A stretch of DNA of 64,000 bases from an uncultured Bacteroidales bacterium (GTDB lineage Bacteria > Bacteroidota > Bacteroidia > Bacteroidales > JAGOPY01), in contig CAWGKX010000006.1 of the NCBI GenBank assembly GCA_963823285.1, positions 87,648-151,647 on the forward strand. Direction: 5' to 3'. Position numbers and translations under genes: made by a program. Positions 18,408 through 55,785 of this stretch are shown here, one piece after another (the first letter of the stretch is position 1; every line of letters begins with the position of its first letter). The notes below the pieces were generated by a model that did not search any database, was not told the DNA's origin, and was given only the letters and a program-made list of their open reading frames with translations.

Positions 18408-19670
18408 TCATTCCTGTCGGCAGCTTTTAATGCAGCCTAGGTAGGCATCTTGAACGGAAGTATAAACCTTTCCTTTTAATCCAAGTGAATTAGCTTTCTT
18501 CCTAAGCTCTTCAGCATCAAGTCCCCTGGGAATATTTGCTTTACAGAAATAATAGATGGCTGATGAAGGCAGCAAACGCAGGATTCCATCAACATCTTTA
18601 TCATTTACCATCCCAAAGACCCAGTGAAGCTTTTGGAATTTTTCCTGCTTTAACTGCTCAAGGATATACTTAATACCAGCTTCATTATGTCCGACGTCGC
18701 ATATTGTTATTGGTTTACGTGAAAGCACCTGCCATCTGCCCTGCAACCCGGTCTGCCGGATGACCTTCTTGAAGCCTTGCCTGATATGTTCATCTGAAAT
18801 AATGAACCCGGCTTCTTTCAGTAACTGCACAGTTTGATAACTGGTGATGATATTTTTTTCCTGGTAGATTCCCCTGAGCGGGCAATAAAACGGGATGCCA
18901 TCCCTGGGAATGGAGTCCCGGTTTTTAGCAAGTATTAAAAACGATCCATTTCTTCCTCCTGCTTTTTCAAATTTATAATGTTGATCTGCGAAAATAATGG
19001 GGGAGTTCAATTTACCAGCCCTGGCAAGGAAGACCTCTTTTACTTCCTCCTGAGTTTCGCCAATAACTACAGGAACGCCGGTCTTTATAATACCTGCTTT
19101 TTCTCCGGCTATCGCCGGCAGGTCATTGCCCAGCAATGCCGTATGATCTCTGCTGATATTGGTTATGACACTGACTAAAGGTGTTATCACATTTGTCGAA
19201 TCCAACCTGCCGCCCATACCGGTCTCTATGATAGCAATGTCAACCTTTTCTTTTGCAAAATATTGAAATGCCATTACAGCGGTATATTCAAAAAATGATG
19301 GGTCTAAATGCTCAAAGGCGTGTTTATTTTTTGTCACGAAGTCACAGACATATACCTTTGGAATTTTCTTTCCATTGAGCTTTATCCTTTCCCTGAAATC
19401 TTTAAGATGCGGGGAGGTATAAAGTCCTGTCTTATAACCTGCACTCTGTAGAATTGATGCTATAAGGTGTGAGGTTGATCCTTTGCCATTGGTCCCGGCA
19501 ATATGCGCCGATCTGAAATAGTTCTCCGGGTGTCCCGATAAAGTACACATGGCAATTGTCGTGTTCAGGTCGGCCCGGTAGGCGGCGGCACCAATCCTGT
19601 GGAACATAGGCAATTGAGCAAACAGGTAATCAACGGTCTGCCGGTAATTCATGCCAATTATTTCCCGCAT
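18408..19670 (-). CDS. folC: Bifunctional folylpolyglutamate synthase/dihydrofolate synthase
   Basis: The 420-aa ORF has the Mur-ligase-type P-loop HIAGTNGKGST, and also SPHL and IIETGMGGRLDSTN. The start may be at Met7 (MNYRQTVDYLF). Confidence 0.9.
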   Translation of the reverse strand: MREIIGMNYRQTVDYLFAQLPMFHRIGAAAYRADLNTTIAMCTLSGHPENYFRSAHIAGTNGKGSTSHLIASILQSAGYKTGLYTSPHLKDFRERIKLNGKKIPKVYVCDFVTKNKHAFEHLDPSFFEYTAVMAFQYFAKEKVDIAIIETGMGGRLDSTNVITPLVSVITNISRDHTALLGNDLPAIAGEKAGIIKTGVPVVIGETQEEVKEVFLARAGKLNSPIIFADQHYKFEKAGGRNGSFLILAKNRDSIPRDGIPFYCPLRGIYQEKNIITSYQTVQLLKEAGFIISDEHIRQGFKKVIRQTGLQGRWQVLSRKPITICDVGHNEAGIKYILEQLKQEKFQKLHWVFGMVNDKDVDGILRLLPSSAIYYFCKANIPRGLDAEELRKKANSLGLKGKVYTSVQDAYLGCIKSCRQE

Positions 19671-19679
19671 TCTGTTTTA

Positions 19680-20087
19680 TCATTTTGACAGAGTGGCCAG
19701 GATCACTTTATGTCGCGTCCCATTTTTCTTGTTGATTACATCGACAGCATCCAGAACAGTCAGTAAGTCCTGTACATTGACCGATTTATCAGCTTTCAAA
19801 ACAATGGTGCCTTCAGTCTGGCCAGCAAGTTTTTGTGCAATTTGGGATTGAAGCATATCCTTATTGACCTGGATTTCATCAACGAAGAAATTTTGCTCTG
19901 AATCAATGTAGACTGATAAAGTTTGTTGGGCAATGGTACTGTTGCTACTTGAAAGAAGAATTTTAATAAAGTTGGGTGCAACCAGGGTAGAGGTAATCAT
20001 GAAAAAGATCAGCAAAAGGAAAACAAGATCTGACATGGAAGCCAGGCTGAATGTAGCGCTGATTTTATTCCTGGTTCTTATAGCCAT
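19680..20087 (-). CDS. exbD: ExbD/TolR biopolymer transport protein
   Basis: The 135-aa ORF has the N-terminal TM SMSDLVFLLLIFFMITSTLV and a periplasmic domain with the typical IVLKADKSVNVQDLLTVLD segment. Confidence 0.85.
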   Translation of the reverse strand: MAIRTRNKISATFSLASMSDLVFLLLIFFMITSTLVAPNFIKILLSSSNSTIAQQTLSVYIDSEQNFFVDEIQVNKDMLQSQIAQKLAGQTEGTIVLKADKSVNVQDLLTVLDAVDVINKKNGTRHKVILATLSK

Positions 20088-20133: not shown

Positions 20134-20730
20134 TTATTTTACAGGTTCATGAAGCATATCCATGAACTCTGAAGTCTGCAGCTCAAGATTATGAACCAAT
20201 TTTTCAATCCTGGAAACCAGGATATTATAAAAGACATATGACAGGATTCCCACTATTAATCCGCCCACAGTTGTAATCAAAGCCTGGTAAATGCTAATTG
20301 AAAAAAGTTCAATATTAATGTTATTACCTGATTTTGACAAATCATAGAAAGTAATGGCGATACCGGTCACAGTACCAAGGAAGCCAAGCATTGGCGCAGC
20401 GCCGGCTATCATTGCCAGTCCGGCTACATTTTTTTCTAACCTGGCCACTTCGATGTTGCCTGAATTTTCAATAGCTGCATTGATATCACCCAGGGGTCTC
20501 CCTATACGTTTCAGTCCTTTTTCGATCATTCGGGCACCGGGACTTTCATTGGTTCTGCAGATAGAAAGTGCCGAATCAATCTGGTCGTTAGCCATGAAAT
20601 CCCTGATATTGTTCATGAAATGCTGATCATCCCTGATGGCCTTGTCGATGGTAAGATATCTTTCAATAAAGATATAAATGGCAATGACAAACATTAAGCT
20701 AAGTACTATCATCATCATTAATCCGGTCAT
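20134..20730 (-). CDS. exbB: MotA/TolQ/ExbB proton-channel protein
   Basis: The 198-aa ORF has 3 TM segments and the conserved GAAPMLGFLGTVTGI block. Confidence 0.85.
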   Translation of the reverse strand: MTGLMMMIVLSLMFVIAIYIFIERYLTIDKAIRDDQHFMNNIRDFMANDQIDSALSICRTNESPGARMIEKGLKRIGRPLGDINAAIENSGNIEVARLEKNVAGLAMIAGAAPMLGFLGTVTGIAITFYDLSKSGNNINIELFSISIYQALITTVGGLIVGILSYVFYNILVSRIEKLVHNLELQTSEFMDMLHEPVK

Positions 20731-20939: not shown

Positions 20940-21716
20940 CTATCCAGAGATTCTTCTCCTGTAAATGAACAATGTAACCACTGTCATCAGTCCGATGCCC
21001 AGGAACAATGACCAGTTCGAAAGTGGTATCTTATGGCCGCAATTAGTGGATACACAGATGGTGCTCACGGGTTGACCAACAGAGTTTCCGTTAAAATTAT
21101 ATTCCCAGTTGAACTGGACGACGTTTTCGGTGGTTGGGGATGAATCTTGCTGACCGGTCTGATCGACAACCGTCATAACCACTCCGTCATCACCTTGCAG
21201 GTAACCTCCTGACAGGAAATCTTCCTGCAGGTCCCAGATAATGGGTGGACAGAAATTATCCACTCCTTCCAGTGCAACTGGATCTTTTACCCGGAAACAG
21301 ATATGGAATAACTTGGTCCACGTGGTAGTGGACAAAGAGATAGTCGCAGGGCCAAACACCTGGACCTGCCCGTTGAACCATTCCAGCGGGCCGGAAAGTC
21401 CGAAGAAAGACCCGCTACCGGGAGCTTGTTGCTCAACCACGGGAGGTTCCAGAACGTTATATCCATCCTGGAAGTCACCTATTGACAGGTATTCAAGGAT
21501 ATTGCCATCATAAAAGAAGCGGACATTCATCCCAAATAGCTTCTGCCCGGGAGTATCGGAAATAAATTCGACGTCCAGGCAATAGGTTTGGGTGGGACAG
21601 TCGTAAACCGGATTGGCAAAACGAACTGTCACCACAGGTAAAGCAGGTTGAGCCGCGACTTGAAATCCAGATAAAACCAGGATAAAAAGCACAGGCAGAT
21701 AGATTTTAGTTTTCAT
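20940..21716 (-). CDS. Cohesin-like domain protein with C-terminal TM/basic sorting-signal-like tail (copy A)
   Basis: The 258-aa ORF has the signal peptide MKTKIYLPVLFILVLSGFQVAAQ. Its module contains VRFFYDGNILEYLSIG, matching the xIxYDxxxLxFxG landmark of the other cohesin-like modules in the locus. The tail is IPLSNWSLFLGIGLMTVVTLFIYRRRISG. Confidence 0.6.
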   Translation of the reverse strand: MKTKIYLPVLFILVLSGFQVAAQPALPVVTVRFANPVYDCPTQTYCLDVEFISDTPGQKLFGMNVRFFYDGNILEYLSIGDFQDGYNVLEPPVVEQQAPGSGSFFGLSGPLEWFNGQVQVFGPATISLSTTTWTKLFHICFRVKDPVALEGVDNFCPPIIWDLQEDFLSGGYLQGDDGVVMTVVDQTGQQDSSPTTENVVQFNWEYNFNGNSVGQPVSTICVSTNCGHKIPLSNWSLFLGIGLMTVVTLFIYRRRISG

Positions 21717-23118
21717 AATATGCTTGTTTTATAATGATACAATAACATGACATTCTTTTGCAGGATAAATCCTGTGTTGGTTTGATAAGATTAAAGAATA
21801 TATGATCTTTCATGACCGTGGGAATTTAATTTTTGGGTACTGAAGAGAATTTACCATTGTTAAACTCCCAGGTGGTGCGATCGTTATAATTGCAGTCACC
21901 GTTGAGGTTGTAATCGCCGGTGCGATAACGGCCTGTAGTGCCATTCTGACCTTCCCAGTAGGTTCTGTCATCAAAGTTGATATCAGTAACAGAACTGGCA
22001 GGGATCACCTGCTGACCATTACCGGCATACATGGCGAAGATGCCCGGGAGGATCTCCTTCTGTCCGTAGCCTAATCCGGTGATAACATCGATATAACTCT
22101 GGACATTACGGAAGTCGAAAGTGAGGGTGTCATTGGCGATAGGCACCGGATCAGCAGACATGACAATCAGGTGATTACGATGTTCGATGACCAGGTAGTA
22201 GGAACTGTCTAAATTCAGGCTGCAGCAGTCAAAACCACCATCCACAAATTCGATATGGCCGTCGTTATGCAGTAGTGCAGCTTTGCGGCATAGATTTCCA
22301 CCTTCGGGGGCACTCCTGAGGGATACCAGCACCCAATCCACCACAGTGGCAGGATAGTTAGCAGTGCCAGGATTTGGGTTTCCATGAGAATCATATCCGA
22401 AGCCTTCAGTGCCGTTATAATTCCAGGGAGCACCAGAATAAGGCTGTCCCGGAGGAGTATATACGTTACCGGAAAAGACACTAAAGTATGTTTGACCCGG
22501 CAATATCTTCAGGTTGTTGAGACTGGTGCGCATGGGCACGGTATAAGTCTGGGTACCTCCCGGATTAATCGCAGCACCGTCAAGATATACCCAGGTTTTA
22601 ACAAACAGATCGCTGATGTTGATGATCTGCTGGCATGTCGCTGGATTACCGCAATTATCCTCAATCTCGTAGGTTCGAATGATTGTATTTCCGGATGGTA
22701 CATCACTCACCCAGATAAAGGAACCCTCATCGATACCGCAATTATCCGAGGCGGAACCACCGGCAGCGACGAAGGCTGCATAGTTGGCATACGGATCGGG
22801 TGCCGTGCATATCACAGAAAGGCCAGCAGGGCAGTTCAATGTGGGAGGCTCATTATCGCTTACAGTATAGGTGTAAGTCCAGTCGGCCGTTGTGGTTCCA
22901 TCGCAGGCGGTATAGCGGTATGTCCAGACAACCTGGCCTTCGCAAATAATCGGGTTAGGCGTTGTCACAGAGCCTACCAGAACGGAGGACACTGTTCTTC
23001 CGCATGCATCAGTAATATTAGCTGGGGCACCCGGATTCACTGCATCTACAGAGCAGGATACGGTGGATAATCCGTTAGCCGGCGGGGTAAGTCCGCTGGA
23101 GTAGATAACCGTGTAGGT
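20954..23118. repeat. Segmental duplication, copy A (partner 33866..36029)
   Basis: The two copies are collinear at a constant offset of 12912/12911 bp. They differ by a handful of substitutions and one 1-bp indel in the intergenic part. The segment covers the 258-aa gene, the intergenic spacer and the 3' 1.3 kb of the giant gene. Confidence 0.9.
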
Positions 23119-26100
23119 CTTGGTCCAGTCGGCCGTGGTGGTTCCGTTACAGGCAGTATAACGGTATCTCCAGACAATAGATCCATTGCAGGTCACCGGG
23201 TTGGGTGTTTGTTCCTTACCAATTAAGGTTGCCGAGACGGTACGTCCGCAGGCATCGGTAATATTGGCAGGGGCACCCGGATCGGTTGCATTGGACGGGC
23301 AGGAAACAGTGGCGGTGGTGTTGACCGGAGGGGTCAGACTACCGGAGTAAATAACCGTGTAGGTCTTGGTCCAGTCGGCCGTGGTGGTTCCGTCACATGC
23401 GGTATAACGGTATCTCCATACGATCGATCCATTGCAGTCCACCGGATCAGGTGATTGTTCTTTGCCAATTAAGGTTGCCGAGACGGTACGTCCGCAGGCA
23501 TCGGTAATGTTTTCCGGAGCCCCCGGATCGGTTGCATTGGACGGGCAGGAAACAGTGGCGGTGGTGTTAACCGGAGGGGTCAGACTACCGGAGTAAATAA
23601 CCGTGTAGGTCTTGGTCCAGTCGGCCGTAGTGGTTCCATCACAGGCGGTATAACGGTATCTCCAGACGATAGATCCGTTGCATGTCACCGGGTTGGGTGT
23701 TTGTTCCTTACCAATTAAGGTTGCCGAGACGGTACGTCCGCAGGCATCGGTAATGTTGGCAGGAGCGCCCGGGTCGGTTGCATTGGACGGGCAGGAAACA
23801 GTGGCAGTGGCGTTAACCGGAGGGGTTAGTCCGCCAGAGTAAATCACCGTGTAGGTCTTGGTCCAGTCGGCGGTGGTGGTTCCGTCACATGCGGTATAAC
23901 GGTATCTCCAGACGATCGATCCATTGCATGTCACCGGGTTGGGAGTTTGTTCCTCGCCGACTAAGGTTGCCGGGCCGGTAAGTCCGCAGGCATCGGTAAT
24001 GTTGGCAGGAGCGCCCGGGTCGGTTGCATCAGCCGGGCAGGAAACAGTGGCGGTGGCGTTAGCCGGAGGGGTAAGTCCGCCGGAGTAAATCACCGTGTAG
24101 GTCTTGGTCCAGTCGGCCGTAGTGGTTCCATCACAGGCGGTGTAACGGTATCTCCATACGATCGATCCGTTGCAGGTCACCGGGTTGGGTGTTTGTTCCT
24201 CGCCGACTAAGGTTGCCGAGACAGTGCGTCCGCAGGCATCGGTAATGTTGGCAGGCGCCCCTGGATCGGTTGCATTGGACGGGCAGGAAACAGTGGCGGT
24301 AGTGTTAACCGGAGGGGTAAGTCCGCCGGAGTAGATCACCGTGTAGGTCTTGGTCCAGTCGGCCGTTGTGGTTCCGTCACAGGCGGTATAACGGTATCTC
24401 CATACGATCGATCCGTTGCAGGTCACCGGGTTGGGTGTTTGTTCCTCGCCGACTAAGGTTGCCGAGACAGTGCGTCCGCAGGCATCGGTAATGTTGGCAG
24501 GCGCCCCTGGATCGGTTGCATTGGACGGGCAGGAAACAGTGGCAGTGGCGTTAGCCGGAGGGGTCAGGCCGCCAGAGTAGATCACCGTGTAGGTCTTGGT
24601 CCAGTCGGCCGTTGTGGTTCCATCACAGGCGGTATAACGGTATCTCCAGACGATCGATCCGTTGCAGGTCACCGGGTTGGGTGTTTGTTCTTCGCCAACT
24701 AAGGTTGCCGAGACAGTGCGTCCGCAGGCATCGGTAATGTTGGCAGGCACCCCAGGGTCGGTTGCATTGGACGGGCAGGAAACAGTGGCAGTGGCGTTAG
24801 CCGGAGGGGTCAGTCCGCCGGAGTAGATCACCGTGTAGGTCTTGGTCCAGTCGGCCGTTGTGGTTCCGTCACAGGCGGTATAACGGTATCTCCATACGAT
24901 CGATCCATTGCAGGTCACAGGGTTGGGTGTTTGTTCCTCACCGACTAAGGTTGCCGAAACGGTACGTCCGCAGGCATCGGTAATGTTGGCAGGAGCGCCC
25001 GGGTCGGTTGCATTGGACGGGCAGGAAACAGTGGCGGTGGTGTTAGCCGGAGGGATCAAGCCGCCGGAGTAAATAACCGTGTAGGTCTTGGTCCAGTCGG
25101 CCGTTGTGGTTCCATCACAGGCGGTATAACGGTATCTCCAGACGATCGATCCATTGCAGTCCACCGGGTTGGGTGTTTGTTCTTTCCCGACTAAGGTTGC
25201 CGGGACGGTACGTCCGCAGGCATCGGTAATATTGGCAGGAGCACCCGGATCGGATGCATTGGACGGGCAGGAAACAGTGGCGGTGGTGTTAACAGGAGGA
25301 GTAAGTCCGCCGGAGTAAATAACCGTGTAGGTCTTGGTCCAGTCGGCCGTTGTGGTTCCGTCACAGGCGGTATAACGGTATCTCCAGACAATAGATCCAT
25401 TGCAGGTCACCGGGTTGGGTGTTTGTTCCTTGCCAATTAAGGTTGCCGGGACGGTACGTCCGCAGGCATCGGTAATATTGGCAGGAGCGCCCGGGTCGGT
25501 TGCATTGGACGGGCAGGAAACAGTGGCGGTGGTGTTAGCCGGAGGGGTCAGGCCGCCGGAGTAGATAACCGTGTAGGTCTTGGTCCAGTCGGCCGTTGTG
25601 GTTCCATCACAGGCGGTATAACGGTATCTCCATAGGATCGATCCGTTGCATGTCACCGGATCAGGTGTTTGTTCCTCACCGACTAAGATTGCCGAGACGG
25701 TACGTCCGCAGGCATCGGTAATGTTTTCCGGAGTCCCCGGATCGATTGCATTGGACGGGCAGGAAACAGTGGCGGTGGCGTTAACCGGAGGGGTCAGTCC
25801 GCCGGAGTAAATAACCGTGTAGGTCTTAGTCCAGTCGGCCGTTGTGGTTCCATCACAGGCGGTATAACGGTATCTCCATACGATAGATCCATTGCAGTCC
25901 ACTGGGTTGGGTGTTTGTTCCTTACCAATTAAGGTTGCCGAGACGGTACGTCCGCAGGCATCGGTAATGTTGCCAGGAGCGCCCGGGTCGGTTGCATTGG
26001 ACGGGCAGGAAACAGTGGCGGTGGTGTTAGCCGGAGGGGTCAGTCCGCCGGAGTAGATAACCGTGTAGGTCTTGGTCCAGTCGGCCGTTGTGGTTCCATC

Positions 26101-29100
26101 ACAGGCGGTATAACGGTATCTCCATACGATCGATCCATTGCAGGTCACCGGGTTGGGAGTTTGTTCCTCACCGACTAAGATTGCCGAGACGGTACGTCCG
26201 CAGGCATCGGTAATGTTGCCAGGAGCGCCCGGGTCGGTTGCATTGGACGGGCAGGAAACAGTGGCGGTGGTGTTAACCGGCGGGGTCAGTCCGCCGGAGT
26301 ATATAACCGTGTAGGTCTTGGTCCAGTCGGCGGTGGTGGTTCCATCACAGGCGGTATAACGGTATCTCCATACGATCGATCCATTGCAGTCCACCGGATC
26401 AGGTGATTGTTCCTTACCGACTAAGGTGGCAGAGACGGTACGTCCGCAGGCATCAGTAATGTTTTCCGGAGCGCCCGGATCGGTTGCATTGGACGGGCAG
26501 GAAACAGTGGCGGTTGTGTTAACCGGAGGGGTCAGTCCGCCGGAGTAAATAACCGTGTAGGTCTTGGTCCAGTCGGCCGTGGTGATTTCGTCACAGGCGG
26601 TATAACGGTATCTCCATAGGATCGATCCGTTGCATGTCACCGGATCAGGTGTTTGTTCCTCACCGACTAAGGTTGCCGAGACAGTGCGTCCGCAGGCATC
26701 GGTAATGTTTTCCGGAGCGCCCGGATCGATTGCATTGGACGGGCAGGAAACAGTGGCGGTGGTGTTAACCGGCGGGGTAAGTCCGCCGGAGTAAATAACC
26801 GTGTAGGTCTTGGTCCAGTCGGCCGTTGTGGTTCCATCACAGGCGGTATAACGGTATCTCCATACGATAGATCCATTGCAGTCCACCGGATCAGGTGTTT
26901 GTTCCTCACCGACTAAGGTTGCCGAGACAGTGCGTCCGCAGGCATCGGTAATGTTTTCCGGAGTCCCCGGATCGGTTGCATTGGACGGGCAGGAAACAGT
27001 GGCGGTTGTGTTAACCGGAGGTGTCAGTCCGCCGGAGTAAATCACCGTGTAGGTCTTGGTCCAGTCGGCCGTTGTGATTTCGTCACAGGCGGTATAACGG
27101 TATCTCCAGACGATCAATCCATTGCAGTCCACCGGGTTGGGTGTTTGTTCTTTCCCGACTAAGGTTGCCGAGACGGTACGTCCGCAGGCATCGGTAATGT
27201 TGCCAGGAGCGCCCGGGTCGGTTGCATTGGACGGGCAGGAAACAGTGGCGGTGGTGTTAACCGGCGGGGTCAGTCCGCCGGAGTAAATAACCGTGTAGGT
27301 CTTGGTCCAGTCGGCCGTTGTGGTTCCATCACAGGCGGTATAACGGTATCTCCATACGATCAATCCATTGCAGTCCACCGGGTTGGGTGTTTGTTCCTTG
27401 CCAATTAAGGTTGCCGAGACGGTACGTCCGCAGGCATCGGTAATGTTGGCAGGAGCGCCCGGGTCGGTTGCATTGGACGGGCAGGAAACAGTGGCGGTGG
27501 TGTTAACCGGAGGGGTCAGTCCGCCGGAGTAAATAACCGTGTAGGTCTTGGTCCAGTCGGCCGTTGTGATTTCGTCACAGGCGGTATAACGGTATCTCCA
27601 GACGATCGATCCATTGCAGTCCACCGGGTTGGGTGTTTGTTCTTTCCCGACTAAGGTTGCCGAGACGGTACGTCCGCAGGCATCGGTAATGTTGCCAGGA
27701 GCGCCCGGGTCGGTTGCATTGGACGGGCAGGAAACAGTGGCGGTGGTGTTAACCGGAGGTGTCAGTCCGCCGGAGTAAATAACCGTGTAGGTCTTGGTCC
27801 AGTCGGCCGTTGTGATTTCGTCACAGGCGGTATAACGGTATCTCCAGACGATCGATCCATTGCAGTCCACCGGGTTGGGTGTTTGTTCTTTCCCGACTAA
27901 GGTTGCCGAGACGGTACGTCCGCAGGCATCGGTAATGTTGCCAGGAGCGCCCGGGTCGGTTGCATTGGACGGGCAGGAAACAGTGGCGGTGGTGTTAACC
28001 GGAGGTGTCAGTCCGCCGGAGTAAATAACCGTGTAGGTCTTGGTCCAGTCGGCCGTTGTGATTTCGTCACAGGCGGTATAACGGTATCTCCATACGATCG
28101 ATCCATTGCAGTCCACCGGATCAGGTGATTGTTCCTTACCGACTAAGGTGGCAGAGACGGTACGTCCGCAGGCATCAGTAATGTTTTCCGGAGCGCCCGG
28201 ATCGGTTGCATTGGACGGGCAGGAAACAGTGGCGGTTGTGTTAACCGGAGGTGTCAGTCCGCCGAAGTAAATCACCGTGTAGGTCTTGGTCCAGTCGGCC
28301 GTTGTGATTTCGTCACAGGCGGTATAACGGTATCTCCATACGATCGATCCGTTGCAGTTTACCGGATCAGGTGTTTGTTCCTTGCCAACTAAGGTTGCCG
28401 AGACGGTACGTCCGCAGGCATCGGTAATATTGGCAGGGGCACCCGGATCGGTTGCATTGGACGGGCAGGAAACAGTGGCGGTGGTGTTAACCGGAGGGGT
28501 CAGTCCGCCGGAGTAGATAACCGTGTAGGTCTTCGTCCAGTCGGCCGTGGTGATTCCATCACAGGCGGTATAACGGTATCTCCAGACGATCGATCCATTG
28601 CAGTCCACCGGATCAGGTGATTGTTCCTTACCGACTAAGGTGGCAGAGACGGTACGTCCGCAGGCATCGGTAATATTGGCAGGAGCACCCGGATCGGTTG
28701 CATTGGACGGGCAGGAAACAGTGGCGGTGGTGTTAACCGGAGGGGTCAGTCCGCCGGAGTAGATAACCGTGTAGGTCTTCGTCCAGTCGGCCGTGGTGAT
28801 TCCATCACAGGCGGTATAACGGTATCTCCAGACGATCGATTCATTGCAGTTCACCGGGTTGGGAGTTTGTTCCTTGCCGACTAAGGCTGCCGAGACGGTA
28901 CGTCCGCAGGCATCGGTAATGTTGGCAGGAGCACCCGGATCGGTTGCATTGGACGGGCAGGAAACAGTGGCGGTGGTGTTAACCGGAGGGGTCAGTCCGC
29001 CGGAGTATGTAATGGTATAGGTATAAGTCCATACAAATTCTAGGTTGGCACAATCCTTATAAGTGTAAATCCAGGTATAGGTTCCATTGCAGCCGGCATA

Positions 29101-32100
29101 GCTTCCGCCATTTGTTGGAGTCGGGACAGAAAGGATATTGCCGCATATATCTTTGACCACAGGCAGGGTAATAGGTGCTGTGGCATTGGCCAGACACTGA
29201 ACGGTACCGCCATTGGTTGAAACCGGTCCGCCGGACTCGGCAGGTGGAGTGGTATGAGTGAGGTTGAAAACCTGTGTGCATGTGTTGGGATTACTGCAGG
29301 AATCCGTTACCTGGTAAGTCCGCGTGACAGTTAATGCACATGTCCCTTCGACTGTCTGTCCTAAATAACTAAAGGTATAGATATCACCACAATTATCAGT
29401 GGCTGTTCCACCTGCAGCGCGAAATGCTCCTATGTTTGCATAAGGAGCTGGTAAGTCTGCAACGCACTGATAGCTTGAACTGCCGGGAGGACAGGTAATC
29501 GAAGGAGCTATTGAATCCTTCACCGTAATCGTCTGTGAGCAATCTGCGTGATTTCCGCTTTGGTCAGTGGCTCGGTAAGTTCGCGTAATAGTGAATTTAT
29601 TTGGGCACGTCTTATTTGTGATAACGTCTCCCTGCCATGTAATAAGAATATCAGCAGGTAGGGTACAATCGTCAGTCGCGGTCACAGAAGAAGTATTTTC
29701 CGGAGGTACTGCTGAAGCACAGGCAACAGTCAAATTCGCCGGGCATGTAATATTTGGCGCAGAGTTAGGTGGCAGCGTACTGAATGAAATATCATCTAAG
29801 CCAAAATCATTTCCTCCCGCAATGGTTTGAAGATCAACGATTCTTATTACTGCAGAAGTGTTGCTGCCTGAATTCCAAACAGAATAGAATCTATTCCAGA
29901 CGAAAGGTCCTGCAGTTGTGGTGGCTCCTGGAGGCAATTGAAAAGGATATCCCAGCAGAATGCCATTTATACTGAATTGCAAAAATGCGTACGTATTATT
30001 TGCCTGGTTTAAACTCATTGCCCAGGCGTTAAAATAGTAATTGGTGTTTGGTGTGACCGTAATATTCTCTTGCCATACTGTTATACCGGGAGAGACATTG
30101 CCATTTATAGCCATATAAAGGCCAGTGCCCGGGTTTGTGTGATCAGTACCGAAAAAATTGGTATGTTGTGCATTAGAATTAGGTGTAACTGCATAAAGTC
30201 CTTCAGGCACCAGATCTGCCGGAGCATAAATATATGCAGATGTAAAACCTGTATTTCCCGCCGTAAAGTTTCCATTCGTGACAAGTTCACCGCCAACATT
30301 AACGTCTTGTGTATTTGAGCATCCGCCCGCAGTTGTGACGGTAACAGTATAAATACCTGCCTGATGCGCAATAATGGATTGTGTGGTCTCTCCTGTATTC
30401 CATAAGTAAGAGGCAAATGCGGGATCGACCGTCAATTGAATATCGACATTTTGTATACAATTATTTGAATTTATTGTAAACGAGGGCGCTGTACCTCCCG
30501 ACACTGTCACAGTCACTGTTCCGCAGGCTGAATTCAGGTTACATGGACTGCCGGATTCATAGCGGCCCCAATATTGTGTAGTACCAGCTGGTGTTACTTT
30601 TAAATTATCTCCTGTCCCAACGAGAGTACCGCCGCAACTTCCGGTATACCATTTAATCGTTTGTGCGCCTCCTCCTGCGCCTCCGCCACCCCCGGTCAAA
30701 GAAAGAATAGAAAAGCCCCCGGTACAGATCGAAGCAGGACTGGCAGCAGCCGTTGGAGCGCCAATTGCAGCGCATGCTGCACCGATAGCAAAATCACCGA
30801 AACCGGATAGTCCTGTAGCTGTTGTAGATGTTGCAAGTGGGTTAGTTGTTGTTGGTGAAGTCCAGGCGGAAGAAAAGAATCTTTTAACTAAAAAGTTCGC
30901 AGTGATGTTCTTAGCTGAGGGATCTATATCAACCGGAGTTACCCAGCCAATAAAAGTAAATGTAGCAGTGTATGTTCCTATTGCAAGAGCGCCTCCTGCA
31001 GTTAAAGTCCAGTAACGGTTAACATCATTGGCAGGATCAATGCCTGAAGTATTAATATTAGGATGTTCAGTTTTAGTGTTTTTGGCTGTTAAAGTTCCGG
31101 CAACTGTTACATTTAGTGCCGTAATGGCGATAGGAGTGTAGCTAAGCGAATCTCCAATGTAAAACGTCTTGGATTGGCCGGCTCCGGTCCCTAATGTCCA
31201 CTCTAAATTTCCATAAACATACAAGCCGGCTCCTGCTCCAACCACACTTGCAGCTGTGCCAAGAGTCAGTTTATTTGCTCCTGTCGTGATTTTTCCGCTT
31301 GTGAAGGTGAGTATACCTGTAACAGTTGCATTCACCCCATTTAGCTTAACTCCCCCGGTATTATCGATGGTTAAATTAGTAAATGTCGTCGCACTTGAAC
31401 CGCTTATAGTCTGTGCTCCTCCATTGAAAACTATAGTACCTGTGTTTGCGGTAAATGTGCCATTGTTTGTCCAGTCACCGACTAAACTAAGTGTATTTAT
31501 CGAACCAAGCAATATCCCGCCTGTGTTTATAGTAAGCTTACTCGCTGTTGAAGCAGCATTGACGGTTATTGTATGCCCGCTGAGAATGGTAATGGAAATG
31601 GCGGCATTGGTAGGTACAACGGACGAAGTCACCCATATGACATTATCGGTTGAGATTTCCCAAGTATTTGCAGTGTTCCAGTTACCTGTGATCCTTGAAC
31701 GAAAATAATTGGCAAAAGGTTCACCGATCTGGAAATCACTGAAACTCGTAAGCCCCGTAGCTTGTGTAGTCGTCGCCGTTCTTGTCCCGGTAGTTGTTGA
31801 GTTCCATACGGAAGAAGCGAACCTTTGAATGATGAAGTTCGCAGTATTAGCTCCGGCATCCAGATCACCGGGGTTAATAAAAGTAAACGTGGCGTTATAA
31901 TTCGATAAAACAAGCCCTCCACCGGAGGCTAATGTCCAGTAACGATTAACTGATCTTATTGGTGCAATGTTGGAGCTGCCAATGTTCGGATGATCGCCGG
32001 CAGTTGTGCGCGCCATTGTAGTTCCGGGAGTGGTCACACTATTGAAAGTAATGGAAACCGGTGTATAAGCCGTCTCATCACCGATTGCAAAATTTTTGGT

Positions 32101-33465
32101 TGTTGTACCTGCTGGAATTGTCCATTCTAAATTTCCAATTACCCATCCTGTACCTCCACCGACAACAGTTGCCGATGAACCAAGCGTTAACTTAAAGAAT
32201 GGACCTGAAGTTATATTCCCACTGGTGAATGTAAGCGTGCCGTTCACAATTTCGCCAAATGAATCTACCAATGAGACCCCGGTGGCATTGTTGACTATCA
32301 AATTATTAAAGGCTGTCACTGTGAGGCCTGTAATAAACTGCTGAGCAGTACCATTGAAAGTCACCGTTCCGGTCCCGGCTGTGAAAGTCCCGTCATTTCC
32401 AAAATCACCGCCCAGGGTCAGATTAAAATTACCCGTATTTAAACTCCCGTTGACTATTTCGAGATTGACTGCGGCATTAAATGTTTTTGCCCCATTTAGC
32501 GTGATAACACCGGTATTTGTAATGATCACCCCACCGGTTGCCGCAAAAGGTGTTATCCATTCCAGCCCTGCCGTACGCGAACTGGCTGTATTGTATTGCA
32601 AAGTTGCTGCCGCGCCGTAAGTCGGTGCTACAGAAGCAGTAGCAGTTCCTTCCATGGAGAGGATACCTCCCACAGTCACTCCGGTTGTAGTTTTTATATT
32701 CGAACCGGGACCACCGGAAAGTGTTAGATTAGTATACGTTGATGGTTTGACAGTTTGTGCCCCGGTTCTGCTATAATTGACCGTTGCCCCGGTTCCGTTG
32801 AAAGTTGTTGTAAATACTCCGCTGTTCCCGGTCGTTCCGAATGGCGTTGCACCACCAAGCACTAAGTTGGGATTGAAATTTCCTAAAGTCAAAGTTGCTA
32901 TACAAGCTGCATTGCTCGCTGTAACGGGTGTAATTGTCCCGTTTACAGTTACCATTCCGCTATTTTCTATGAACGAGGAATTATCTGAAAATGTGCCGGA
33001 TCTGCTGCTTGTAATGGTCAAATTGCCTGTAATAGTAAAATTCAGGATAGTTGAGGTCATTATAGTTGTTCTGGTACCCGTCGGTGTAACAGCAGTGCCA
33101 ACATTTGCTGATGCACAGGCTAATGTCCCGGCACCTTCTATTAAACAAGCAGTATTTCCTCCTGCTGCACTGTTTAAAGTCACGGCATTTGTAACTGTAA
33201 CCGTGATTCCGCTGTTAATATTTAGAGTTGCAATAGCCCCGTTAAAAGTAATTGAGAGACAGGTAGTAGTCACATCGCCTGTCAGGGTAATTCCGTTCGG
33301 AATTACCACATCATCGCCTGAACCGGGAACACCGGTTGGTGTCCAGGTACTTCCGGTATTCCAGTTTCCTGTAAATGCAGTTTTAGTAATTGCATGCGTC
33401 AATGAAACTGTAAATAATAAAATTAGTACAGTCAGTGCTGCTTTTAACAAAGAACTCGTCTTCAT
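21826..33465 (-). CDS. Giant secreted adhesin-like protein (about 3879 aa): beta-helix-like head, CBM-like domain, HYR-like Cys domains, 25 x 82-aa repeats, conserved C-terminal module with dockerin-like end
   Basis: One uninterrupted ORF runs 21826..33549. I prefer Met29 (ATG at 33463-33465), which gives the signal peptide MKTSSLLKAALTVLILLFTVSLTHA. No T9SS C-terminal domain is recognisable at the C-terminus (...GDYNLNGDCNYNDRTTWEFNNGKFSSVPKN). Confidence 0.9.
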   Translation of the reverse strand: MKTSSLLKAALTVLILLFTVSLTHAITKTAFTGNWNTGSTWTPTGVPGSGDDVVIPNGITLTGDVTTTCLSITFNGAIATLNINSGITVTVTNAVTLNSAAGGNTACLIEGAGTLACASANVGTAVTPTGTRTTIMTSTILNFTITGNLTITSSRSGTFSDNSSFIENSGMVTVNGTITPVTASNAACIATLTLGNFNPNLVLGGATPFGTTGNSGVFTTTFNGTGATVNYSRTGAQTVKPSTYTNLTLSGGPGSNIKTTTGVTVGGILSMEGTATASVAPTYGAAATLQYNTASSRTAGLEWITPFAATGGVIITNTGVITLNGAKTFNAAVNLEIVNGSLNTGNFNLTLGGDFGNDGTFTAGTGTVTFNGTAQQFITGLTVTAFNNLIVNNATGVSLVDSFGEIVNGTLTFTSGNITSGPFFKLTLGSSATVVGGGTGWVIGNLEWTIPAGTTTKNFAIGDETAYTPVSITFNSVTTPGTTMARTTAGDHPNIGSSNIAPIRSVNRYWTLASGGGLVLSNYNATFTFINPGDLDAGANTANFIIQRFASSVWNSTTTGTRTATTTQATGLTSFSDFQIGEPFANYFRSRITGNWNTANTWEISTDNVIWVTSSVVPTNAAISITILSGHTITVNAASTASKLTINTGGILLGSINTLSLVGDWTNNGTFTANTGTIVFNGGAQTISGSSATTFTNLTIDNTGGVKLNGVNATVTGILTFTSGKITTGANKLTLGTAASVVGAGAGLYVYGNLEWTLGTGAGQSKTFYIGDSLSYTPIAITALNVTVAGTLTAKNTKTEHPNINTSGIDPANDVNRYWTLTAGGALAIGTYTATFTFIGWVTPVDIDPSAKNITANFLVKRFFSSAWTSPTTTNPLATSTTATGLSGFGDFAIGAACAAIGAPTAAASPASICTGGFSILSLTGGGGGAGGGAQTIKWYTGSCGGTLVGTGDNLKVTPAGTTQYWGRYESGSPCNLNSACGTVTVTVSGGTAPSFTINSNNCIQNVDIQLTVDPAFASYLWNTGETTQSIIAHQAGIYTVTVTTAGGCSNTQDVNVGGELVTNGNFTAGNTGFTSAYIYAPADLVPEGLYAVTPNSNAQHTNFFGTDHTNPGTGLYMAINGNVSPGITVWQENITVTPNTNYYFNAWAMSLNQANNTYAFLQFSINGILLGYPFQLPPGATTTAGPFVWNRFYSVWNSGSNTSAVIRIVDLQTIAGGNDFGLDDISFSTLPPNSAPNITCPANLTVACASAVPPENTSSVTATDDCTLPADILITWQGDVITNKTCPNKFTITRTYRATDQSGNHADCSQTITVKDSIAPSITCPPGSSSYQCVADLPAPYANIGAFRAAGGTATDNCGDIYTFSYLGQTVEGTCALTVTRTYQVTDSCSNPNTCTQVFNLTHTTPPAESGGPVSTNGGTVQCLANATAPITLPVVKDICGNILSVPTPTNGGSYAGCNGTYTWIYTYKDCANLEFVWTYTYTITYSGGLTPPVNTTATVSCPSNATDPGAPANITDACGRTVSAALVGKEQTPNPVNCNESIVWRYRYTACDGITTADWTKTYTVIYSGGLTPPVNTTATVSCPSNATDPGAPANITDACGRTVSATLVGKEQSPDPVDCNGSIVWRYRYTACDGITTADWTKTYTVIYSGGLTPPVNTTATVSCPSNATDPGAPANITDACGRTVSATLVGKEQTPDPVNCNGSIVWRYRYTACDEITTADWTKTYTVIYFGGLTPPVNTTATVSCPSNATDPGAPENITDACGRTVSATLVGKEQSPDPVDCNGSIVWRYRYTACDEITTADWTKTYTVIYSGGLTPPVNTTATVSCPSNATDPGAPGNITDACGRTVSATLVGKEQTPNPVDCNGSIVWRYRYTACDEITTADWTKTYTVIYSGGLTPPVNTTATVSCPSNATDPGAPGNITDACGRTVSATLVGKEQTPNPVDCNGSIVWRYRYTACDEITTADWTKTYTVIYSGGLTPPVNTTATVSCPSNATDPGAPANITDACGRTVSATLIGKEQTPNPVDCNGLIVWRYRYTACDGTTTADWTKTYTVIYSGGLTPPVNTTATVSCPSNATDPGAPGNITDACGRTVSATLVGKEQTPNPVDCNGLIVWRYRYTACDEITTADWTKTYTVIYSGGLTPPVNTTATVSCPSNATDPGTPENITDACGRTVSATLVGEEQTPDPVDCNGSIVWRYRYTACDGTTTADWTKTYTVIYSGGLTPPVNTTATVSCPSNAIDPGAPENITDACGRTVSATLVGEEQTPDPVTCNGSILWRYRYTACDEITTADWTKTYTVIYSGGLTPPVNTTATVSCPSNATDPGAPENITDACGRTVSATLVGKEQSPDPVDCNGSIVWRYRYTACDGTTTADWTKTYTVIYSGGLTPPVNTTATVSCPSNATDPGAPGNITDACGRTVSAILVGEEQTPNPVTCNGSIVWRYRYTACDGTTTADWTKTYTVIYSGGLTPPANTTATVSCPSNATDPGAPGNITDACGRTVSATLIGKEQTPNPVDCNGSIVWRYRYTACDGTTTADWTKTYTVIYSGGLTPPVNATATVSCPSNAIDPGTPENITDACGRTVSAILVGEEQTPDPVTCNGSILWRYRYTACDGTTTADWTKTYTVIYSGGLTPPANTTATVSCPSNATDPGAPANITDACGRTVPATLIGKEQTPNPVTCNGSIVWRYRYTACDGTTTADWTKTYTVIYSGGLTPPVNTTATVSCPSNASDPGAPANITDACGRTVPATLVGKEQTPNPVDCNGSIVWRYRYTACDGTTTADWTKTYTVIYSGGLIPPANTTATVSCPSNATDPGAPANITDACGRTVSATLVGEEQTPNPVTCNGSIVWRYRYTACDGTTTADWTKTYTVIYSGGLTPPANATATVSCPSNATDPGVPANITDACGRTVSATLVGEEQTPNPVTCNGSIVWRYRYTACDGTTTADWTKTYTVIYSGGLTPPANATATVSCPSNATDPGAPANITDACGRTVSATLVGEEQTPNPVTCNGSIVWRYRYTACDGTTTADWTKTYTVIYSGGLTPPVNTTATVSCPSNATDPGAPANITDACGRTVSATLVGEEQTPNPVTCNGSIVWRYRYTACDGTTTADWTKTYTVIYSGGLTPPANATATVSCPADATDPGAPANITDACGLTGPATLVGEEQTPNPVTCNGSIVWRYRYTACDGTTTADWTKTYTVIYSGGLTPPVNATATVSCPSNATDPGAPANITDACGRTVSATLIGKEQTPNPVTCNGSIVWRYRYTACDGTTTADWTKTYTVIYSGSLTPPVNTTATVSCPSNATDPGAPENITDACGRTVSATLIGKEQSPDPVDCNGSIVWRYRYTACDGTTTADWTKTYTVIYSGSLTPPVNTTATVSCPSNATDPGAPANITDACGRTVSATLIGKEQTPNPVTCNGSIVWRYRYTACNGTTTADWTKTYTVIYSSGLTPPANGLSTVSCSVDAVNPGAPANITDACGRTVSSVLVGSVTTPNPIICEGQVVWTYRYTACDGTTTADWTYTYTVSDNEPPTLNCPAGLSVICTAPDPYANYAAFVAAGGSASDNCGIDEGSFIWVSDVPSGNTIIRTYEIEDNCGNPATCQQIINISDLFVKTWVYLDGAAINPGGTQTYTVPMRTSLNNLKILPGQTYFSVFSGNVYTPPGQPYSGAPWNYNGTEGFGYDSHGNPNPGTANYPATVVDWVLVSLRSAPEGGNLCRKAALLHNDGHIEFVDGGFDCCSLNLDSSYYLVIEHRNHLIVMSADPVPIANDTLTFDFRNVQSYIDVITGLGYGQKEILPGIFAMYAGNGQQVIPASSVTDINFDDRTYWEGQNGTTGRYRTGDYNLNGDCNYNDRTTWEFNNGKFSSVPKN
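22873..29022 (-). repeat. Coding tandem array: 25 units of 246 bp (82 aa)
   Basis: The landmark ggagta[ag]ataaccgtgtaggtcttggtccagtcggc recurs at 23098, 23344, 23590 ... 29002, and (29002-23098)/246 = 24. Translation gives 24 near-identical units of the form TYTVIYSGGLTPPVNTTATVSCPSNATDPGAPANITDACGRTVSATLVGKEQTPNPVTCNGSIVWRYRYTACDGTTTADWTK, plus one divergent C-terminal unit. Confidence 0.95.
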
Positions 33466-33785
33466 AAAAATAAATCTTTTGGTATTTTTTTCAATGGCTC
33501 TTGTTTTGACGCTGCCATCAACCTGGGGAAAAGAGTAAATATTTTTCATGATTTTCTTTTTGGATTTAATACTTGGATCTTTTTTTATTGCAGGGGGGAA
33601 AATTCATTGAAACTATTAATTACGGGGGTGATAATGAATCACTGATTGAAGCTTCAAAATGGACATAATGATTCAAAAACCAGTAAGTGCTGAAAATCAT
33701 AATATTAGATAAAAAAAATTGTAATTATAAATTGGTTAATGACTTAGACTAAGGAAAGGTACAAAATATTTTAATACACAGCACA

Positions 33786-33851: not shown

Positions 33852-34628
33852 TTATGAACTCATCCTTCTCCTGTAAATGAACAATGTAACCACTGTCATC
33901 AGTCCGAGGCCCAGGAACAATGACCAGTTCGAAAGTGGTATCTTATGGCCGCAATTAGTGGACACACAGATGGTGCTCACGGGTTGACCAACAGAGTTTC
34001 CGTTAAAATTATATTCCCAGTTGAACTGGACGACGTTTTCGGTGGTTGGGGATGAATCTTGCTGACCGGTCTGATCGACAACCGTCATAACCACTCCGTC
34101 ATCACCTTGCAGGTAACCTCCTGACAGGAAATCTTCCTGCAGGTCCCAGATAATGGGTGGACAGAAATTATCCACTCCTTCCAGTGCAACTGGATCTTTT
34201 ACCCGGAAACAGATATGGAATAACTTGGTCCACGTGGTAGTGGACAAAGAGATAGTCGCAGGGCCAAACACCTGGACCTGCCCGTTGAACCATTCCAGCG
34301 GGCCGGAAAGGCCGAAGAAAGACCCGCTACCGGGAGCTTGTTGCTCAACCACGGGAGGTTCCAGAACGTTATATCCATCCTGGAAGTCACCTATTGACAG
34401 GTATTCAAGGATATTACCATCATAAAAGAAGCGGGCATTCATCCCAAATAGCTTCTGCCCGGGAGTATCGGAAATAAATTCGACGTCCAGGCAATAGGTT
34501 TGGGTGGGACAGTCGTAAACCGGGTTGGCAAAACGAACTGTCACCACAGGTAAAGCAGGTTGAGCCGCGACTTGAAATCCTGATAAAACCAGGATAAAAA
34601 GCACAGGCAGATAGATTTTAGTTTTCAT
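33852..34628 (-). CDS. Cohesin-like domain protein with C-terminal TM/basic tail (copy B)
   Basis: The 258-aa ORF differs from copy A at only a few residues: V65A, LGIGL to LGLGL, and the C-terminus RRRMSS versus RRRISG. Confidence 0.6.
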   Translation of the reverse strand: MKTKIYLPVLFILVLSGFQVAAQPALPVVTVRFANPVYDCPTQTYCLDVEFISDTPGQKLFGMNARFFYDGNILEYLSIGDFQDGYNVLEPPVVEQQAPGSGSFFGLSGPLEWFNGQVQVFGPATISLSTTTWTKLFHICFRVKDPVALEGVDNFCPPIIWDLQEDFLSGGYLQGDDGVVMTVVDQTGQQDSSPTTENVVQFNWEYNFNGNSVGQPVSTICVSTNCGHKIPLSNWSLFLGLGLMTVVTLFIYRRRMSS

Positions 34629-36029
34629 AATATGCTTATTTTATAATGATACAATAAATTGACATTCTTTGCAGGATAAATCCTGTGTTGGTTTGATAAG
34701 ATTAAAGAATATATGATCTTTCATGACCGTGGGAATTTAATTTTTGGGTACTGAAGAGAATTTACCATTGTTAAACTCCCAGGTGGTGCGGTCGTTATAA
34801 TTGCAGTCGCCGTTGAGGTTGTAATCGCCGGTGCGATAACGGCCTGTAGTGCCATTCTGACCTTCCCAGTAGGTTCTGTCATCAAAGTTGATATCAATAA
34901 CAGAACTGGCAGGGATCACCTGCTGACCATTACCGGCATACATGGCGAAGATGCCCGGGAGGATCTCCTTCTGTCCGTAGCCTAATCCGGTGATAACATC
35001 GATATAACTCTGGACATTACGGAAGTCGAAAGTGAGGGTGTCATTGGCGATAGGCACCGGATCAGCAGACATGACAATCAGGTGATTACGATGTTCGATG
35101 ACCAGGTAGTAGGAACTGTCGAAATTCAGGCTGCAGCAATCAAAACCACCATCCACAAATTCCACATGGCCGTCGTTATGCAGTAGTGCAGCTTTGCGGC
35201 ATAGATTTCCGCCTTCCGGGGCACTCCTGAGGGATACCAGCACCCAATCCACCACAGTGGCAGGATAGTTAGCAGTGCCAGGATTTGGGTTTCCATGAGA
35301 ATCATATCCGACGCCTTCAGTGCCGTTATAATTCCAGGGAGCACCAGAATAAGGCTGTCCCGGAGGAGTATATACGTTACCGGAAAAGACACTAAAGTAT
35401 GTTTGACCCGGCAATATCTTCAGGTTGTTGAGACTGGTGCGCATGGGCACGGTATAAGTCTGGGTACCTCCCGGATTAATCGCAGCACCGTCAAGATATA
35501 CCCAGGTTTTAACAAACAGATCGCTGATGGTGATGATCTGCTGGCATGTCACAGGATTACCGCAATTATCCTCAATCTCGTAGGTTCGTATGATTGTATT
35601 TCCGGATGGTACATCACTCACCCAGATAAAGGAACCCTCATCGATACCGCAATTATCCGAGGCGGAACCACCGGCAGCGACGAAGGCTGCATAGTTGGCA
35701 TACGGATCAGGGGCCGTGCATATCACAGAAAGGCTATCAGGGCAGTTCAATGTAGGAGGCTCATTATCGCTTACAGTATAGGTGTAAGTCCAGTCGGCCG
35801 TTGTGGTTCCATCGCAGGCGGTATAGCGGTATGTCCAGACAACCTGGCCTTCGCAAATAATCGGGTTAGGCGTTATCTGAGAGCCTACCAGAACTGGGGA
35901 CGCTGTTCTTCCGCATGCATCAGTAATATTAGCTGGGGCACCCGGATTCACTGCATCTACAGAGCAGGATACGGTGGATAATCCGTTAGCCGGCGGGGTA
36001 AGTCCGCTGGAGTAGATAACCGTGTAGGT
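33866..36029. repeat. Segmental duplication, copy B (partner 20954..23118)
   Basis: See copy A. Confidence 0.9.
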
Positions 36030-39806: not shown

Positions 39807-40187
39807 GATTTTGGCATTTGGGTTTTTAAAAAACGATTTTTGTCTACGGCAGATAGAAGGGATAGGGAGGTTAGCCGAGAAATAAAACAATATATTCTAA
39901 GGAGGAGATAATGACCAGCTTATTATAAGAATAAATTTTAAAAAAATAAAATTCCTGAATCGAATCATATTGATATTCAACAATTTGGGTTTAATCGACT
40001 TGGCTATGATTGCTTTACACAGCAATAACAATGTAAATATAGAATATTATTATTTAAAAAACAAATTAAAATGGCAAAATTTATTAAAGGGAATGCAATT
40101 TTATTTGCCATTAAGGATAATATGGTGATAATTCGGGGTACAATAAAAATGTAACCCAGGTGCTGGAGATATCCAATTTAAGATTTC

Positions 40188-45380: not shown

Positions 45381-45426
45381 ATCATTAAATTTTAATTATT
45401 TGCATATATCATTAGTTTATATTATA

Positions 45427-55704: not shown

Positions 55705-55785
55705 CGTATCAAGCAGATATACAAAGATAAAAAACCCCATGCTGCAAATACAGCATGGGGCATTAATAAATCTCTTAACAGGATA

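Follow-up and report, generated by a model that had tools for sequence, protein, structure and literature searches.

We analyzed a 64,000-nucleotide stretch from an uncultured Bacteroidales bacterium (contig CAWGKX010000006.1), hereafter the window, in which three minus-strand proteins of 3907, 1717 and 756 aa end in a common C-terminal module of 220-265 aa. The module is a real, very widespread and unnamed family. Together with a partner domain of predicted cohesin-type fold, encoded immediately downstream of the two largest module proteins and in many related loci, it probably forms a cohesin-dockerin-type docking pair that would tether giant proteins lacking a type IX secretion system (T9SS) C-terminal sorting domain (CTD) to surface anchors. 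Docking between cohesins and dockerins is known; new here are two large unannotated families that would form such a system in a T9SS context. Homology, folds and position at the C-terminus were observed, as were synteny and domain fusions, and the docking reading is based on them; from these we infer physical binding, its Ca2+ dependence and the site of binding in the envelope.

A shared C-terminal module with a dockerin-like end

An initial annotation of this DNA had proposed that the three tails carry one module with an identical order of landmarks. Translation of positions 21826-22800, 34737-35711 and 43110-45380 of the minus strand bears this out, with every landmark present in the same order: VYLDG/AILEG, QPYSGAPW(N/T)Y(N/T)G(T/S)E, VVDWV(L/I), (E/Y)HRNHL(I/S)(V/M)MSA(D/T)PVP, TFDF/TYDF, MYA(G/A)(N/D)G and, last, DxNxDG-type loops. 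The giant-type and scaffoldin-type modules share 34% identity over ~230 columns (BLASTP E 1e-29; phmmer E ~1e-23), which at the sequence level is far above chance. Exactly three copies are present in the window (six-frame tblastn; no other match below E 0.8), but they represent only two independent versions, since the copies of the two giants, which are 98% identical, belong to a segmental duplication of 3,163 bp (20950-24112 and 33862-37023, 96.3% identity), along with several HYR repeats and the 258-aa gene downstream.

All three carriers lie on the minus strand, and their modules start slightly further upstream than first delimited. Copy 1 (21829-22620) forms the C-terminal 264 aa of giant 1, a 3907-aa ORF at 21826-33549 with 28 HYR_4C repeats, which probably starts at M29 (33465) and would then encode a protein of 3879 aa with a signal peptide. 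The 28-unit HYR_4C array has a 246-bp DNA period with 82-92% identity between units, and since arrays of this kind easily collapse or expand during assembly, caution is due on the exact figure of 3907 aa. Within copy 1, the β-sandwich spans ~22030-22608 and the dockerin-like loop-helix pair ~21829-22029, with MYAGNG at 22015-22032 and the second Ca2+ loop, DYNLNGD, at 21895-21915. Copy 2 (34740-35531) forms the C-terminal 264 aa of giant 2, a 1717-aa ORF at 34737-39890 with a PKD_6 domain, six HYR_4C repeats and a signal-peptide-like start at M56 (39725). Copy 3 (~43113-43769) ends a 756-aa scaffoldin-like protein (43110-45380) that consists of a signal peptide, four Pfam cohesins (44931-45320, 44553-44909, 44169-44525 and 43785-44135) and the module.

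None of the three module proteins contains a T9SS sorting domain of type A (PF18962/TIGR04183), type B (TIGR04131) or type C (NF033708) in Pfam and NCBIfam searches at E ≤ 0.1. The earlier statement that they lack type A and type B domains is thus upheld, and the puzzle of how a CTD-less 3879-aa giant is exported is real. The same annotation had also stated that these are exactly the proteins of the locus with a signal peptide and no recognisable type A CTD, which is not fully accurate: signal-peptide-like N-termini without a CTD are also found in two 258-aa proteins, in a 278-aa ORF (52169-53005) and in a 77-aa ORF (40288-40521).

No Pfam or NCBIfam model covers the module in the three window proteins or in 45 relatives, and a giant-type profile matched no PDB sequence, in agreement with the first impression that it belongs to no named family. 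An exhaustive HMMER search over 1.84 billion cluster representatives recovered 11,304 module representatives at E ≤ 1e-3, 7,584 at E ≤ 1e-10 and 1,167 at E ≤ 1e-30. Its C-terminal bias, which the initial annotation had marked for checking, is pronounced: 251 of 262 copies in 256 sequences (~96%) lie within 10 residues of the protein end, and a word-indexed search gave 415 module proteins, in all 120 listed of which no more than 0-6 residues follow the module. The exceptions (P-numbers denote related module proteins and L-numbers related genomic loci) include P0181 with three tandem copies, P0229 with five partial copies, and P0190 and P0192, in which a Fib_succ_major domain follows an internal module. 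A T9SS CTD was found in 0 of ~180 listed module proteins.

In a scan of one genome per species, 582 module stretches were confirmed. The best 80 of these are almost all from Bacteroidota, often with several copies per genome, and come from Saprospiraceae, Lewinellaceae, Chitinophagales, Bacteroidales metagenome-assembled genomes (MAGs), cultured Flavobacteriaceae, Flavilitoribacter and Neolewinella. Some relatives consist of a signal peptide and the module and nothing more. Such stand-alone proteins (P0076, P0020) are encoded at L080:6001-6921, L082:6001-6891 and in L083, and their neighbours include eCIS_core (PF13699), AAA and GH46 genes and a PKD-CARDB-T9SS-CTD protein, an architecture that also follows a giant's module in L028. 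P0042, initially considered a stand-alone module, was rejected as a fragment of a frame-shifted giant; P0420 and P0414 are likewise fragments. Searches of the literature on dockerins or cohesins in combination with T9SS, Saprospiraceae, HYR or piggyback export returned no description of the module, nor of its pairing with T9SS-sorted cohesin-fold proteins; dockerins in rumen Bacteroidetes are mentioned only in passing (PMC6487960).

Structure prediction, which had been suggested as a follow-up, gave a β-sandwich followed by two EF-hand-like loop-helix repeats. In the AlphaFold2 (AF2) model of the 264-aa module, based on a 45-sequence alignment (predicted local distance difference test (pLDDT) 85.7; predicted template modelling score (pTM) 0.87), the sandwich comprises residues ~5-197 and includes a long, ordered and conserved loop region, and helices are formed by residues 217-225 and 245-253. 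As judged by the pTM of the model, the whole module would behave as one rigid unit. The best Foldseek matches in the PDB are 2b59_B (E 9e-3, prob 0.96), 3kcp_A and 4fl4_C/I, and the top matches are X-module–type-II-dockerin dyads of the Clostridium thermocellum scaffoldin (E 9e-3 to 6e-2, prob 0.84-0.96). Near-invariant polar and aromatic residues of the sandwich cluster in the long ordered loops (QPY..PW.Y.G.E, DWVLV.LR, EHRNHL..MS and QK). A relationship of the module to T9SS type A CTDs was considered and rejected (hhalign against 10 CTDs, probability 0.2%).

The C-terminal part contains the tandem ~22-residue segments that define dockerins, each with an EF-hand-like Ca2+ loop of 12 residues (D or N at positions 1, 3 and 5, and D at position 12) and then a helix. 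The scaffoldin copy has the canonical duplicated form, with two near-identical 12-residue loops, DGNADGQVSNFD (43263-43283 onward) and DYNLDGQVSNFD (43176-43196 onward), and a helix after each. In the giants, the second loop, DYNLNGDCNYND, is canonical, and the first keeps only positions 5, 7, 9 and 12 and carries an insertion. Family conservation follows the same pattern: among 256 relatives, loop 2 is near-invariant at D238, N240, N242, D244, N246 and D249 (positions 1, 3, 5, 7, 9 and 12), and loop 1 is conserved at D213, D215, N217 and D220 (positions 5, 7, 9 and 12).

A profile of the scaffoldin-type subfamily searched against PDB sequences returned 25 matches, of which 20 are dockerins, each marginal (best 2vn5_B, E 1.4e-3); the matches to solved dockerins all fall within the last 60 profile positions. 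The giant-type profile matched no PDB sequence, and this search revealed no sequence similarity of the module to X-modules. Among the relatives, P0229 exceeds the threshold of the Pfam family Dockerin_1 with 33.2 bits and P0406 has a precomputed PF00404 match. The last ~65 residues of the module are dockerin-like at the level of motif and fold, and those of the window's copies are not members of the Dockerin_1 family.

A cohesin-fold partner encoded directly downstream

Directly downstream of giant 1 lies the gene for a 258-aa partner protein (20940-21716, minus strand) with a signal peptide, a cohesin-fold domain (~21033-21644) and a C-terminal tail (20943-21029) of the form IPLSNW-TM-RRRISG, where TM denotes a transmembrane helix. 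A near-identical duplicate (33852-34628, minus strand; tail 33855-33941) lies downstream of giant 2. The AF2 model of the partner (pLDDT 90.7), which ends in a helix at residues 234-257, has cohesins as its top 23 Foldseek matches (E 1e-5 to 8e-4, prob 1.00), and on the basis of this model the partner domain is a cohesin-type β-sandwich (jelly-roll). The link to cohesins is at the fold level only, and a partner profile matched no PDB sequence.

The partner family comprises 259 indexed matches. The tail, CG..IP(L/V)SNW(S/A)LxLAIGLM......FIYRRR(I/M)S(G), is found in 119 of 120 partner homologues, and the remaining one has a T9SS CTD. It follows the layout of a sorting tail, with a short motif, a TM helix and a basic cluster at the extreme C-terminus, and looks like the target of a putative sortase-like system in Bacteroidales-type MAGs. 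Among the curated NCBIfam sorting models, only LPXTG_anchor gave a match, at 14.4 bits (cutoff 15.9). A resemblance to IPTL-CTERM was not confirmed: neither IPTL-CTERM nor PEP-CTERM matched at E ≤ 10.

The linkage of module and partner was analyzed in 76 related genomic loci from Bacteroidales, Saprospiraceae, Lewinellaceae, Chitinophagales and Flavobacteriaceae isolates, in which 84 full modules are followed by 1.2 kb of sequence or more. An ORF with the partner domain starts within 600 bp downstream of 40 of these 84 modules (median ~110 bp), and 85 of 85 partner matches lie on the module's own strand. In the loci that are not orthologues of the window, the partner domain occurs in three forms: (i) in proteins of 300-430 aa ending in a T9SS type A or type B CTD (TIGR04183, 31-49 bits, in L003, L013, L014, L024, L032, L043 and L060; TIGR04131, 55.6 bits, in L010, detected with the library that gave no type B match in the window's module proteins), (ii) as two to four tandem copies (L001, L043, L047 and L057), and (iii) at the N-terminus of the next module-ending giant (L006, L011, L037, L038 and L048). 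The suggestion that the module is associated with cohesin-like neighbours is thereby supported twice over, by the cohesin-fold partner gene directly downstream and by canonical cohesin proteins nearby. Iterative jackhmmer searches did not extend the partner family to loci lacking a match.

Module and partner domain are also fused, in 16 of 136 representative module proteins, with the partner domain mostly just after the signal peptide. P0214 consists of partner and module only, and P0166 has three partner domains and a module, mirroring the four cohesins and module of the window's scaffoldin. Three consecutive genes at L006:4343-19516 may encode a head-to-tail chain: the first product ends in a module, the second (1870 aa) carries a partner domain at its N-terminus and a module at its C-terminus, and the third (2879 aa) combines a partner domain at the N-terminus with a type-A-CTD-like tail (TIGR04183 22.8 bits; cutoff 23). 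As for the scaffoldin-type subfamily, in L085 a cohesin-module protein is encoded beside cohesin-CTD proteins, echoing positions 43110-47121 of the window.

One subclade of Saprospiraceae has, directly after the module gene, a gene for an outer-membrane barrel of 610-670 aa instead of a partner. Membership of Porin_10 (PF14121) was confirmed for L066:4276-6279, L073:4881-6722 and L074:4168-6057; the barrels of L068 and L076 were placed with these only by a common C-terminal ending of the RIRFGLKWxLLD type.

Other genes of the locus

Beside the scaffoldin gene, a 564-aa minus-strand protein (45427-47121) combines a cohesin, Ig-like domains and a T9SS type A CTD, and is by its domain content a candidate surface anchor with a canonical cohesin. 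A 1647-aa protein (47215-52158, minus strand) contains PKD, a weakly matching cohesin and a type A CTD. Its TTG start lies 11 nt from the end of the 278-aa ORF (52169-53005, also minus), and the two may be one gene broken by a stop or frameshift. Directly downstream of the scaffoldin's module, an 820-aa protein (40579-43041, minus strand) likewise ends in a type A CTD. Its N-terminal 160 aa (VTFKYTN..GGNLVFDIEMKSD..LGALELYINY) appear cohesin-like by eye, which hhalign and phmmer against the PDB did not confirm.

The T9SS genes at the edge of the locus comprise a PorU C25 sortase gene (58422-62264, plus strand) and a PorP/SprF family gene (57290-58321, minus strand); an FGE-sulfatase-fold GldJ/PorK-like gene lies at 55786-57258. 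The 77-aa ORF (40288-40521, minus strand), between the 820-aa gene and giant 2, encodes a signal peptide and a Gly/Pro-rich stretch, and its tail scores 23.2 bits against PID-CTERM (NF046080; cutoff 26, E 4e-5); by this below-cutoff match, the tail would be a second kind of sorting tail within the locus.

Genes for ExbB (20134-20730), ExbD (19680-20087) and a FolC/Mur-ligase (18408-19670), all on the minus strand, follow the partner gene, and their order is kept in L002, L018 and L023, which are Bacteroidales MAG loci. ExbB and ExbD were not counted as part of the system, as the arrangement is conserved in orthologous loci only, and the adjacency is probably conserved gene order. A Mur-ligase gene appears to be split between two minus-strand ORFs (54410-54883 and 55126-55740), one of which encodes the N-terminal and middle domains and the other the C-terminal domain; this suggests a frameshift or assembly error. 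Related contigs of the same ENA assembly kind also contain many fragmented genes.

Proposed docking and alternative explanations

In the arrangement that we favour, the module would be a two-part docking unit, with a ~190-aa β-sandwich in the position and role of an X-module packed rigidly on a dockerin-like part of ~65 aa, in which two EF-hand Ca2+ loops each precede a helix. This plug would fit a socket provided by the divergent cohesin-fold domain of the immediately downstream gene, here the 258-aa protein; for the scaffoldin's module, the canonical cohesins of the neighbouring T9SS-sorted proteins are possible sockets. The socket protein would bear the anchoring device, a T9SS type A or B CTD in most Bacteroidota and the conserved IP(L/V)SNW-TM-RRR tail in the window's lineage, so that a CTD-less giant adhesin would be held on it non-covalently. 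Giants with an N-terminal socket and a C-terminal plug could chain head to tail, ending on a CTD-bearing anchor. The initial annotation had left secretion, attachment and docking side by side. Docking or attachment is best supported, because the module matches no known family, is C-terminal and has cohesin-like neighbours, whereas a secretion signal acting in cis finds no support.

One of the two functionally closest known systems is the X-module–dockerin (XDoc) of C. thermocellum CipA, which docks on type II cohesin (2b59, 3kcp and 4fl4). As is predicted for the module, a C-terminal β-sandwich is there packed on the dockerin that closes a large secreted or scaffold protein, and the unit docks on the cohesin of a cell-surface anchoring protein; these dyads are the best fold matches of the module, and the scaffoldin-type subfamily profile marginally matches dockerin sequences. 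The differences are that the sandwich has no sequence similarity to X-modules, that the fold match is weak, that the sandwich is larger and has long conserved loops; that the anchor is a T9SS CTD or TM tail and not a set of surface-layer homology (SLH) repeats; that the host is a diderm; that the cargo consists of HYR-repeat adhesins and not of enzymes; and that the first Ca2+ loop of the giants is degenerate.

A second parallel is found in Ruminococcus flavefaciens, where the XDoc of CttA binds ScaE, a protein with one cohesin that ends in a sortase signal. As proposed for the giants, an adhesin is there tethered via XDoc to a small anchor protein, and the layout of ScaE is that of the window's partner: a signal peptide, one cohesin and a sorting tail made of a motif, a TM helix and basic residues. 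The CttA XDoc/ScaE structure is also represented among the partner's fold matches (4iu3_A), and LPXTG_anchor is the model that its tail approaches. The tail motif is IP(L/V)SNW and not LPXTG, however, there is no sequence homology, and Bacteroidota are diderms that are not known to anchor proteins to the wall by sortase.

Within the same phylum, SprB of Flavobacterium johnsoniae is a T9SS type B CTD protein with an adjacent PorP/SprF-family gene, sprF. The two loci are of the same kind, and there, as proposed for the module, the C-terminal region of a giant surface adhesin works with a partner encoded immediately downstream. In contrast to SprB, the module fails the type B model and the CTD is carried by the partner, and in contrast to SprF, the partner is a soluble cohesin-fold domain and not a PorP/SprF β-barrel.

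Several observations weigh against docking. At the level of the module, the match to the XDoc fold is weak (E ~1e-2; template modelling scores 0.32/0.49) and there is no strong Foldseek match; the degenerate first loop of the giants is poorly modelled (pLDDT < 50 at residues 207-215); and no copy in the window reaches the Pfam threshold for Dockerin_1 (PF00404), the scaffoldin copy scoring 14.7 bits (E 0.036; gathering threshold 22.9) and the giants' copies giving no match. The strong conservation of polar sandwich residues (QPY..PW.Y.G.E and EHRNHL) suggests a function beyond that of a structural X-module. As to the partner, it shows no sequence or profile similarity to Pfam Cohesin (PF00963; Pfam searched to E 10) or to the six Pfam cohesins of the window (no BLASTP match; hhalign probability 1%), and its TM helix and basic tail, taken at face value, would point to inner-membrane anchoring, which is awkward for a surface anchor. 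As to linkage, about half of the related loci have no detectable partner downstream, and in some of them that place is taken by a Porin_10 barrel or an unrelated protein with a CTD; furthermore, L002, L018, L023 and L025 are orthologous to the window, share its TM-tail partner and so are not independent of it, the rest coming from other orders.

An alternative that would merge docking and export into a single mechanism is that the module binds its partner in the periplasm, and that the partner's CTD carries the folded complex through the T9SS. It would account for the absence of CTDs from module proteins and their frequent presence on partner proteins, for the same-strand adjacency of the two genes, for the near-confinement of the module family to the T9SS phylum, and for the position of the window locus next to PorU and PorP/SprF. 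T9SS substrates also include folded and very large proteins (reviewed in PMC9251779), as such export would demand. We nevertheless consider this route unlikely: piggy-back export by the T9SS has no precedent in the searchable literature, 119 of the 120 partner homologues of the window's lineage have a TM tail in place of a CTD, and chains of several giants would need to pass as one complex. The evidence, moreover, does not separate assembly in the periplasm from assembly at the surface. Put as a general proposal, that a two-gene cassette widespread in Bacteroidota exports and anchors a CTD-less giant in trans via the partner's T9SS CTD, the idea is quite doubtful, and the same low expectation covers its joint extension, in which a sorting pathway acting on the IP(L/V)SNW tail would take over the role of the CTD in some lineages.

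The sandwich could instead be a ligand-binding or catalytic tip domain directed at a metal, a glycan or the surface of a host or prey, with the dockerin-like loops merely stabilizing it and the cohesin-fold neighbours reflecting shared regulation of surface proteins. The near-invariant polar and aromatic residues in well-ordered loops would fit such a role, as would the small secreted module-only proteins, some of which are encoded beside eCIS_core and GH46 genes. However, neither sequence nor fold shows similarity to a carbohydrate-binding module, lectin or enzyme family, and it would be left unexplained why module and cohesin-fold genes lie so tightly together on one strand and why the two domains are fused; this reading is very unlikely.

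Finally, it is highly improbable that the module is a cis-acting sorting signal, either a new type of T9SS CTD or a signal for another outer-membrane system: its extreme C-terminal bias (251 of 262 copies) and its mutual exclusion with known CTDs within a protein would be expected of one, but hhalign against type A CTDs gives a probability of 0.2%, no type A, B or C model of NCBIfam matches, the extreme C-terminus is a dockerin-like Ca2+-loop pair and not the β-sandwich, the CTD sits on the partner, and the module also occurs in tandem (P0181, P0229), internally (P0190, P0192) and in stand-alone proteins with a signal peptide. The likeness to a type A CTD is limited to a C-terminal position on Sec-exported Bacteroidota surface proteins and the presence of a β-sandwich, the module being three times larger and ending in Ca2+-loop helices. 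In a variant of this idea, recognition would be by the Porin_10 barrel, the gene for which directly follows that of the module in L066, L068, L073, L074 and L076, comparable to the pairing of type B CTDs with PorP/SprF; as a minority rival, an outer-membrane partner model is thus kept alive for one Saprospiraceae subclade.

With docking as the preferred explanation, the observations bear on an assumption of T9SS biology, namely that Bacteroidota surface proteins carry their own C-terminal sorting domain. Thousands of large proteins without a CTD end in an unannotated module that is paired with a cohesin-fold protein, which itself often bears a CTD. Should the giants instead be exported in trans, this would be the first T9SS hitchhiking mechanism and would come with a new sorting signal. 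The cassette is also present in cultured Algibacter (A. marinivivus ZY111), Aestuariibaculum (A. sediminum TT11), Snuella (S. lapsa JCM 17111), Flavilitoribacter (F. nigricans DSM 23189) and Neolewinella (N. lacunae KCTC 42187), which makes the export question directly testable. If docking is correct, it would explain how CTD-less giant adhesins stay on the cell, would define both the module (at least 11,304 cluster representatives) and its partner as new domain families to be used in annotation, and would extend cohesin-dockerin assembly from Gram-positive cellulosomes to the T9SS surfaces of diderms and to chains of adhesins.

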